Positions 1-1,248 of a DNA stretch of 35,527 bases are shown here, piece after piece. Each line of letters begins with the position of its first letter. The stretch's first letter is position 1. The position numbers and the translations under genes were made by a program. The notes under the pieces are model-generated. The model saw only the letters and a list, made by a program, of their open reading frames with translations. It was not told where the DNA came from and searched no databases. The DNA comes from a virus (lineage: Duplodnaviria; Heunggongvirae; Uroviricota; Caudoviricetes), in the IMG/VR virus record IMGVR_UViG_2654587540_000003. One strand, given 5' to 3'.

Positions 1-573
1 ATGTTTTGCGAAGAAAAAGTAGCTCAAATGGCTGCATACCTACTTCTTAAGCGAGGTGGGCGCATGGCATATCTGAAATTGATGAAGTTGCTCTATCTGT
101 CTAACCGCCAGTCGATTTTGAAGCATGGCAGGATGATCGGCGAAGATAGCCTTTACTCTATGAAATTTGGACCAGTCATGTCGAATACGCTGAACTTGAT
201 TCGCGGTAAGGCTGAAGGCATTGGTGACTACTGGTACAACTTGATAGAGACGAACGGGCATAATGTATCGTTGCGTTCAGATCCGAGGGAAATGGATGCA
301 GACGAGGTCTTTGATGAATTGAGTCGTGCAGATATCCGGATTTTAGATGAAATCTATTCTCGGTATGGGCATATGAACCGATTTGATCTCGCAAATATGA
401 CGCATTTAGAAAGCGTTTGTCCAGAGTGGCACGATCCTGGCAATTCTCGTAAGCCTATAGACCTGAAAGAAATGCTGATCAGTGAGGGTAAAAGCGAGGA
501 TGAGGCTAATCGCATAATTGGCAAAATGGAAGAATCTCAGAAACTTAAGGAATTTTCTTTGCAATTATCATGA
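1..573 (+). CDS. Panacea-domain protein (SocA/GepA-like, DUF4065), putative antitoxin-type component
   Basis: Translation carries the KLMKLLY and FGPV motifs typical of Panacea/DUF4065 proteins. The stop overlaps the next ATG (ATGA, 570-573). GC is visibly lower than the phage core. Confidence 0.6.
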   Translation: MFCEEKVAQMAAYLLLKRGGRMAYLKLMKLLYLSNRQSILKHGRMIGEDSLYSMKFGPVMSNTLNLIRGKAEGIGDYWYNLIETNGHNVSLRSDPREMDADEVFDELSRADIRILDEIYSRYGHMNRFDLANMTHLESVCPEWHDPGNSRKPIDLKEMLISEGKSEDEANRIIGKMEESQKLKEFSLQLS

Positions 574-989
574 CGGATTATCAGCCATACAGGAAAGGAA
601 CTGTGCTTGCCCCAACTGGGCCATGCAATCATCTTCATGTGATTTGTAATGATCCTGTTTATTACCCCGTTAACGATTGTTATTGTGTTTTAGTTGTTAA
701 TATTTCTAGTATCAAGGATGGTGTCCCCCACGATCCGTCTTGCGTCTTGAATTCTGGTGATCATCGCTTTATCAAGCATCCAAGTTATGTTGTTTACGCT
801 GAAGCTATAATTTGGCGAGTGGATAACATGGTTAGAAAGCAGCGATCGGGTGAGATTTCTGTTCATGATGATATGCCAGAAGCTACATTCAATAGAATTC
901 TGGACGGTTTTGATATCTCTGATGAAGTTACGCCAAAGAACCTTAAATTTAAAAATAAATATTGCGTATCATCTATTGATGATGAGTAA
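570..989 (+). CDS. Hypothetical 139-aa protein translationally coupled to the Panacea gene; candidate toxin/effector partner
   Basis: 4-bp ATGA overlap with the upstream gene, same strand, low GC. Cys/His-rich N-terminal region (GPCNHLHVICNDP...NDCYC). No family recognised by eye. Confidence 0.5.
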   Translation: MTDYQPYRKGTVLAPTGPCNHLHVICNDPVYYPVNDCYCVLVVNISSIKDGVPHDPSCVLNSGDHRFIKHPSYVVYAEAIIWRVDNMVRKQRSGEISVHDDMPEATFNRILDGFDISDEVTPKNLKFKNKYCVSSIDDE

Positions 990-1028
990 ACAACAGGAAT
1001 TGTTTCGGTATAACTTCAGGAGTTTTCT

Positions 1029-1202
1029 ATGGAAGATCAAAAAGCAACCAAGCCACAGGTTAAGTTCGACACAATGAAAGCATTCGCAGGTATGGGTGCT
1101 GCTGTTGAAGTTCTGATGAAGGCTGCTCCTAATGCGTTCACTCACGCTACTGTCTCTGGTAAAGAGCAGCAGGGTAAGCTTCGTCGTCGCAAAGCAGCAT
1201 GA
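1029..1202 (+). CDS. Small hypothetical protein (57 aa), third gene of the left-end accessory operon
   Basis: AGGAG ribosome-binding site 6 nt upstream of ATG 1029. Open frame to TGA at 1200-1202, followed at once by a strong terminator. Not in the ORF track because it is under 60 aa. Confidence 0.45.
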   Translation: MEDQKATKPQVKFDTMKAFAGMGAAVEVLMKAAPNAFTHATVSGKEQQGKLRRRKAA

Positions 1203-1221
1203 TCATAGCTGGTGCTTTTTG

Positions 1222-1248
1222 AAAACCCGCCTTTAGGCGGGTTTTTTA
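1222..1248. terminator. Bidirectional rho-independent terminator between the accessory operon (+) and the leftward early operon (-)
   Basis: aaaaCCCGCCtttaGGCGGGtttttt: GC stem flanked by an A-run and a T-run. Confidence 0.7.

Follow-up and report, generated by a model that had tools for sequence, protein, structure and literature searches.

The first two genes of the window, by which the whole 35,527-nucleotide stretch of Caudoviricetes prophage DNA analysed here is meant, most likely encode a type II toxin–antitoxin pair, PanA–PanT, whose toxin falls in PanT cluster T6, as judged from domain and sequence matches. The initial annotation had described a three-gene operon at this position and considered it the likeliest place in the window for an undescribed toxin–antitoxin or anti-phage module. 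The feature is real and was correctly located; as a member of the PanAT family defined by Kurata et al. (2022; PNAS, PMC8832971), the pair is an ordinary representative of a known toxin–antitoxin family and not a new kind of system. The core of the original proposal, a Panacea antitoxin coupled to a toxin partner and carried as prophage cargo, is upheld by the domain match of gene 1, by the strict conservation of the pair and by the predicted fold of the gene 2 product.

The organization of the 5′ end of the window is summarized in Table 1. The gene 2 product contains six cysteines and six histidines. Its length and its ATGA overlap with gene 1 were recovered as originally described, as were the ribosome-binding site of gene 3, the lower GC content of the operon (0.411 for positions 1–1015, compared with 0.461 in the early region and 0.519 in the whole window) and its orientation opposite to the early genes, with the excisionase and, beyond it, the exonuclease and further early genes on the minus strand. 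The terminator hairpin, whose G+C-rich stem of 11 bp precedes a U6 run, with a free energy of −17 to −19.6 kcal/mol on RNA folding and a z-score of −3.46 relative to shuffled sequences, lies just beyond the stop codon of the convergent excisionase and closes the plus-strand unit. It had been described as bidirectional, for which there is support on one side: the scan returned a match on the plus strand alone, and on the minus strand the stem is followed by no more than UUUUC.

Table 1. Features at the 5′ end of the window (coordinates are window positions).
Feature	Position	Strand	Description
Gene 1 (panA)	1–573	+	190 aa; putative stand-alone Panacea-domain antitoxin
Gene 2 (panT)	570–989	+	139 aa; putative toxin; ATG overlaps the panA stop codon as ATGA
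Right boundary of the exchangeable PanAT cassette	990–1015		Break in DNA identity between SKA5 and mEp460
Shine–Dalgarno sequence AGGAG of gene 3	1017–1021	+	7 nt 5′ of the ATG
Gene 3	1029–1202	+	57 aa; basic; phrog_2741; phage backbone gene
Intrinsic terminator hairpin	1221–1246	+	Terminator scan and RNA fold
PrtN-type excisionase (xis)	1250–1558	−	Convergent with genes 1–3

Two other regions of the window deserve mention. The exonuclease is encoded by one 218-aa open reading frame (1568–2224) and is a single coding sequence in phages Lys8385Vzw and mEp460, while in phage SKA5 (L001 6568–7141) it is annotated as two overlapping coding sequences. In the tail module, between the tape-measure gene (26540–28372) and the next tail gene (29057–30385), a 170-aa open reading frame (28454–28966, plus strand) with a signal-peptide-like N-terminus lies in a stretch with a GC content of 0.33; its product matches phrog_8976, of unknown function, has no Pfam family match, and looks like a moron.

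Gene 1 matches the Pfam family SocA_Panacea (PF13274) over residues 27–137 with an E-value of 2.2e-19 and a score of 70.9 bits, far above the cut-off of 25.7, in agreement with the Panacea signature first noticed in it, and its RefSeq name is already 'Panacea domain-containing protein'. An alignment of 19 gene 1 homologues shows a Panacea core, a conserved TH..CPEW.DP.GSS.PI motif and a helical tail, some 50 aa long, that varies among them, and gene 1 has no DNA-binding or other N-terminal domain. The AlphaFold2 (AF2) model computed from the single sequence was unusable (pLDDT of 42), so that it is the Pfam match by which the Panacea fold is assigned. Identity with SocA itself can be ruled out, as the score against the NCBIfam SocA equivalog NF047745 was 14.4 bits, compared with a cut-off of 190. 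In a protein clustering at 90% identity genes 1 and 2 are reported together, in a cluster that also contains a longer form of gene 1 (232 aa, extended at the N-terminus) annotated in some genomes; the joint cluster probably stems from the clustering procedure or from the calling of starts.

Across genomes, genes 1 and 2 stay together. With the gene 2 profile, 32 genome loci were recovered outside E. coli, in Gamma-, Beta- and Alphaproteobacteria (Enterobacterales, methanotrophs, Burkholderiales, Sphingomonadales and Rhodobacterales). At 30 of these loci the gene 2 homologue is immediately preceded by a homologue of gene 1; contig ends truncate the remaining two. Each of the nine phage records in which gene 2 occurs likewise carries gene 1 immediately upstream. 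Across the genome loci the identities of the two proteins drop in parallel, from 82/86% down to 31/31%. Pseudomonas sp. B10 carries the two genes on its chromosome as an island of their own, with no phage context. In the record of Pseudomonas phage Sirocco (OR683410) a 132-aa PanT homologue (L036 1486–1884) was left unannotated, and a 44-aa antisense coding sequence (1741–1875) is annotated over it instead.

The initial annotation assigned gene 2 to no recognized family. It does match a phage protein family (phrog_19071, E-value of 3e-31), in addition to its place in a published PanT cluster, and its relatives are numerous: a word-indexed search returned homologues in 62 clusters, and an exhaustive search with a gene 2 profile returned 2698 representatives at an E-value of at most 1e-3 and 936 at an E-value of at most 1e-10. 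Comparison of the single sequence, and also of a profile, with Pfam, NCBIfam, PADLOC and the sequences of the PDB gave nothing meaningful. Among E. coli copies of gene 2, 11 synonymous changes stand against one non-synonymous change, so that the gene is under purifying selection. RefSeq/PGAP annotates a shorter product of 128 aa (WP_014640052.1) starting from a GTG at position 603. In an alignment of 30 sequences, Pro6 is nearly invariant and Gly10 is invariant, and as both are encoded 5′ of this GTG, and the ATG at position 570 overlaps the panA stop codon, the 139-aa model appears more likely than the 128-aa version.

The structure prediction that had been suggested for the 139-aa protein gave a confident answer. 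The AF2 model, calculated with 30 homologues, has a pLDDT of 92.4 and a pTM of 0.86, and in a Foldseek comparison with the PDB the best 47 matches were all MazF. Gene 2 is thereby predicted with high confidence to comprise a MazF/Kid-like β-barrel core, that is, the CcdB/MazF SH3-like barrel in the model, followed by a C-terminal helical extension. The likeness to MazF is at the level of the fold only. Gene 2 has no match to PF02452 (PemK_toxin), for which one of 68 family members gives a match with an E-value of 0.11; alignment with hhalign of the gene 2 family profile to a single E. coli MazF sequence returned a probability of 0.15%, and a profile search of the PDB sequences with the gene 2 family gave no match.

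In an alignment of 68 sequences, His21 is the sole invariant residue of the gene 2 family, and Leu22, Asp55, Cys58, Gly63, His65, Phe67, Ser72 and Tyr76 are conserved in at least 90%. As read from this alignment, the conserved His21, Asp55, Cys58 and His65 differ from the canonical Arg/Thr pair of MazF, Arg29/Thr52 in the E. coli enzyme. The end of the strand that carries the family's 'NISS' sequence may correspond to MazF Thr51–Thr52. The invariant His21 and the near-invariant Asp55, Cys58 and His65 might bind a metal or make up a catalytic centre based on His. The calculated pI of gene 2 is 5.6, an acidic value that seems unusual for an RNA-binding toxin.

The assignment to a toxin–antitoxin family follows the survey of Kurata et al. 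(2022), in which PanA–PanT systems were grouped into 88 toxin clusters. A PanAT locus comprises an antitoxin with the PF13274 domain and a second gene at most 100 nt away, the arrangement being found in at least two species and not within a conserved longer operon. Gene 1 scores well above the PF13274 cut-off, and the two-gene arrangement is found at 30 of the 30 genome loci at which it can be tested and in nine of nine phages, with gene 3 not conserved alongside the pair. According to Dataset S1 of that work (PMC8832971), cluster T6 is antitoxin-first, mostly with overlaps of −4 or −1, and includes pairs from Proteus vulgaris, Pluralibacter, Pantoea septica LMG 5345, Yersiniaceae strain 2016-Iso4, Photorhabdus and Pseudomonas moraviensis, the overlap being given as −4 for LMG 5345 and −1 for 2016-Iso4. 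Both of the latter strains (loci L009 and L008, respectively), which the dataset lists under T6, carry a pair homologous to genes 1 and 2, and it is through these that the pair is placed in T6. In LMG 5345 the antitoxin comes first with a 4-nt overlap, as listed, and its PanT is identical to homologue P0035 and 56% identical to gene 2.

The T6 PanT of P. moraviensis, marked as 'EndoA/PemK/MazF-family RNAses' by HHpred in that dataset, is toxic, is rescued by and co-purifies with its PanA, and acts as a specific inhibitor of translation (Kurata et al., 2022; PMC8832971). Its link to gene 2 rests on cluster membership, on the termini encoded by the published cloning primers and on close Pseudomonas homologues. 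The primers encode MPGNIL... and ...IRQNNF (PMC8832971), and Pseudomonas homologue P0356, which is 44% identical to gene 2 (E-value of 1e-33), begins with MPGNIL and ends in ...IRQNGF, sharing the primer-encoded N-terminus and five of the six C-terminal residues. The N-terminus of gene 1 (MFCEEKVAQ) resembles the corrected N-terminus of P. moraviensis PanA (MIFSEQKVAQ), which is also that of the PanA of phage Sirocco. Both systems have a stand-alone Panacea antitoxin first and an overlapping toxin of approximately 132–139 aa of the same PanT sequence family, with nearly identical PanA N-termini and a predicted MazF/PemK-like toxin fold. The P. moraviensis pair differs in being validated, in lying on the chromosome as an island that is not phage-borne and in its −1 overlap, whereas the pair described here is E. 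coli prophage cargo with a −4 overlap.

From E. coli, none of the accessions WP_000458584, WP_014640052 and WP_000390072 was found in the portions of the supplements of Kurata et al. (2022) and Ernits et al. (2023) that were accessible, nor were the T6 accessions WP_083201923, WP_072010385 and WP_072063026 in the supplements of the latter. Cluster T1, which includes an E. coli pair and the pair of Salmonella phage Emek, both reported to be non-toxic (PMC8832971), was considered as a home for the pair and rejected, as neither gene 1 nor gene 2 matches Emek by tblastn.

The pair is also distinct from better known systems. Relative to MazEF and Kid–Kis (PemIK), gene 2 has no detectable sequence similarity to the toxins, bears an extra C-terminal helical extension and is accompanied by a Panacea protein instead of an AbrB/MazE-type DNA-binding antitoxin. 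The type VI system SocAB of Caulobacter crescentus has an antitoxin with the same Panacea/DUF4065 domain as gene 1, but its toxin is SocB, while the partner here is a predicted MazF-fold protein; the score of gene 1 against NF047745 lies far below the cut-off for SocA. The T6 homologue from P. moraviensis forms a stable complex with its PanA, as type II direct neutralization predicts, whereas SocA acts as a ClpXP adaptor.

The pair occupies a cargo hotspot of dusA-integrating lambdoid prophages. Phage mEp460, which integrates into dusA, has the same integrase, an attP with a dusA 5′ fragment, the excisionase and the 57-aa gene, and in mEp460-type prophages the cargo that lies between attP and the 57-aa gene varies. 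The DNA of SKA5 and mEp460 is 98% identical up to position −193 relative to the window and 97% identical from position 1016, just before the ribosome-binding site of gene 3, and unrelated in between; the left end of the cassette thus lies approximately 192 bp upstream of position 1, outside the window. With the phage of the window, mEp460 shares 97–98% identical DNA on either side of the same two boundaries. In place of panAT, mEp460 carries a single unrelated gene encoding 177/178 aa (gp23, L003 3284–3817; phrog_4350, of unknown function), which has no Pfam or NCBIfam match. Among 80 IMG/VR prophages (L042–L121) with a gene 3 at least 98% identical to that of the window, 38 carry panAT, 42 the phrog_4350 gene and none both. 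The two are mutually exclusive at the attP/xis hotspot, and the variation of cargo across related prophages, for which a neighbourhood comparison had been proposed, is real.

In the free phage the order is int (minus strand), attP with the dusA 5′ fragment, panA–panT–gene 3 (plus strand) and xis (minus strand), and integration at dusA by this type of integrase has been described (Farrugia et al., 2015; PMC4482086). In the lysogen NZ_AP022098, zur and a DUF2713 gene are followed by the truncated 5′ end of host dusA (plus strand) and then by panA, and the pair is the first gene set inside attL, which corroborates the location at the prophage edge originally suggested. The severed dusA fragment (L037 3143–3500) points into panA from about 250 bp away, and no terminator is predicted between them. 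Because the pair is co-oriented with this fragment, the host dusA promoter may transcribe the cargo in lysogens, read-through from the host adding to the pair's own promoter. A promoter-like element, TTGACC-17-TAAACT, is present at positions −154 to −126, inside the cassette; upstream matches in promoter scans were no more frequent than in shuffled sequence. Position 1 of the window is exactly the first base of the gene 1 ATG, so that the promoter region falls outside it. Many IMG/VR prophage records (L043–L076) begin at the panA ATG and twelve at the panT ATG, as prophage boundaries are called at gene starts; the start of the window is a boundary-calling artefact and the 192-bp upstream region of the cassette is missing from it.

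The place of gene 3 bears on whether the system has two components or three. It is a basic protein (pI of 10.2) whose family, phrog_2741, is of unknown function, and in mEp460-type phages lacking panAT it is found next to xis with 96–100% identity. Gene 3 lies 39 nt downstream of gene 2, in the same direction and with a shared terminator, and only 13 nt are conserved before its start codon, so that its transcription must come from upstream; it is probably co-transcribed with panAT from the cargo promoter. These traits would suit a system of three components, with the 57-aa protein serving, for example, as a regulator, chaperone or second antitoxin of the Panacea pair. The distribution of gene 3 largely refutes that reading, which we regard as very improbable: the gene is absent from all 32 panT loci outside E. 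coli, a match is lacking in five of the nine phage records that have the pair, and it is retained beside xis where the cargo is the different 177-aa gene. Of 5426 complete E. coli genomes, 565 have the gene 3–xis segment and 205 the full region, and among PanAT loci at large accessory third genes occur in merely a small fraction (PMC8832971). Judged by its sequence and neighbours, gene 3 is a separate backbone gene outside the toxin–antitoxin module, and the three-gene module of the initial annotation gives way to a pair and, beside it, a conserved neighbour of the excisionase that stays in place where the PanAT cassette has been exchanged.

Whether the two remaining genes arrest growth in E. 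coli is a separate matter. Gene 2 could be a non-toxic MazF-fold protein, the pair then being conserved as something other than a growth-arresting toxin–antitoxin system, with gene 2 as, for instance, a regulatory or anti-defence factor in phage development and the Panacea protein acting with it as partner or as sensor. Eight PanTs, about one third of those tested, were non-toxic in E. coli (PMC8832971), and the non-canonical conserved residues, the acidic pI and the lack of a defence-database match (at an E-value of at most 1, PADLOC-DB v2 gave no matches for genes 1–3) point the same way. We nevertheless consider this unlikely, given that the closest relative tested is toxic and neutralized, that the pair occurs in Pseudomonas as an island away from phage genes, as a selfish toxin–antitoxin pair would, and that tight ATGA coupling with the antitoxin first is typical of type II systems. 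Still less probable, to the point of being barely credible, is that gene 2 poisons gyrase in the manner of CcdB, or has another protein target, instead of acting as a MazF-like ribonuclease. A type II PanA–PanT pair is the reading retained here.

For such a pair the following course of events can be proposed. The sequence shows that panA and panT are transcribed together and translationally coupled through their overlap. PanT, folding as a MazF/Kid-like barrel as modelled, would halt growth by blocking translation, by homology to P. moraviensis PanT, possibly by means of RNA cleavage. PanA would bind and neutralize PanT directly, through either its Panacea core or its C-terminal tail (residues 138–190), as pull-down and rescue show for the homologue with respect to binding and neutralization, and PanT would presumably be released upon loss of PanA or a sensed trigger. 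A stand-alone Panacea domain can neutralize directly, and a sensory role has been proposed for it (Ernits et al., 2023; PMC10440598). For the E. coli pair, toxicity, binding and inhibition of translation are borrowed from a homologue at approximately 44% identity, and we infer the RNase chemistry, the neutralizing surface, the trigger and the role in defence or stabilization. The pair is carried as a cassette of about 1.2 kb in the hotspot between attP/int and xis, and its role is probably abortive-infection-type defence or stabilization of the prophage; our literature searches found no anti-phage test of a T6 PanAT. A bolder combination, in which T6 PanT has a non-MazF active site with a new target or chemistry and the prophage copy is a genuine abortive-infection defence, with Panacea sensing the incoming phage and expression tied to the host dusA promoter by the position at attL, appears improbable.

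Placing the pair in the PanAT family corrects the idea of a three-gene module, restricting the putative toxin–antitoxin module to genes 1 and 2, and defines a cargo hotspot in dusA-integrating prophages that is filled by either of two alternative cassettes. T6 PanT would be a toxin devoid of the canonical MazF residues. About 4% of the complete E. coli genomes carry a gene, still listed as 'hypothetical', to which a name and a testable function can now be given.
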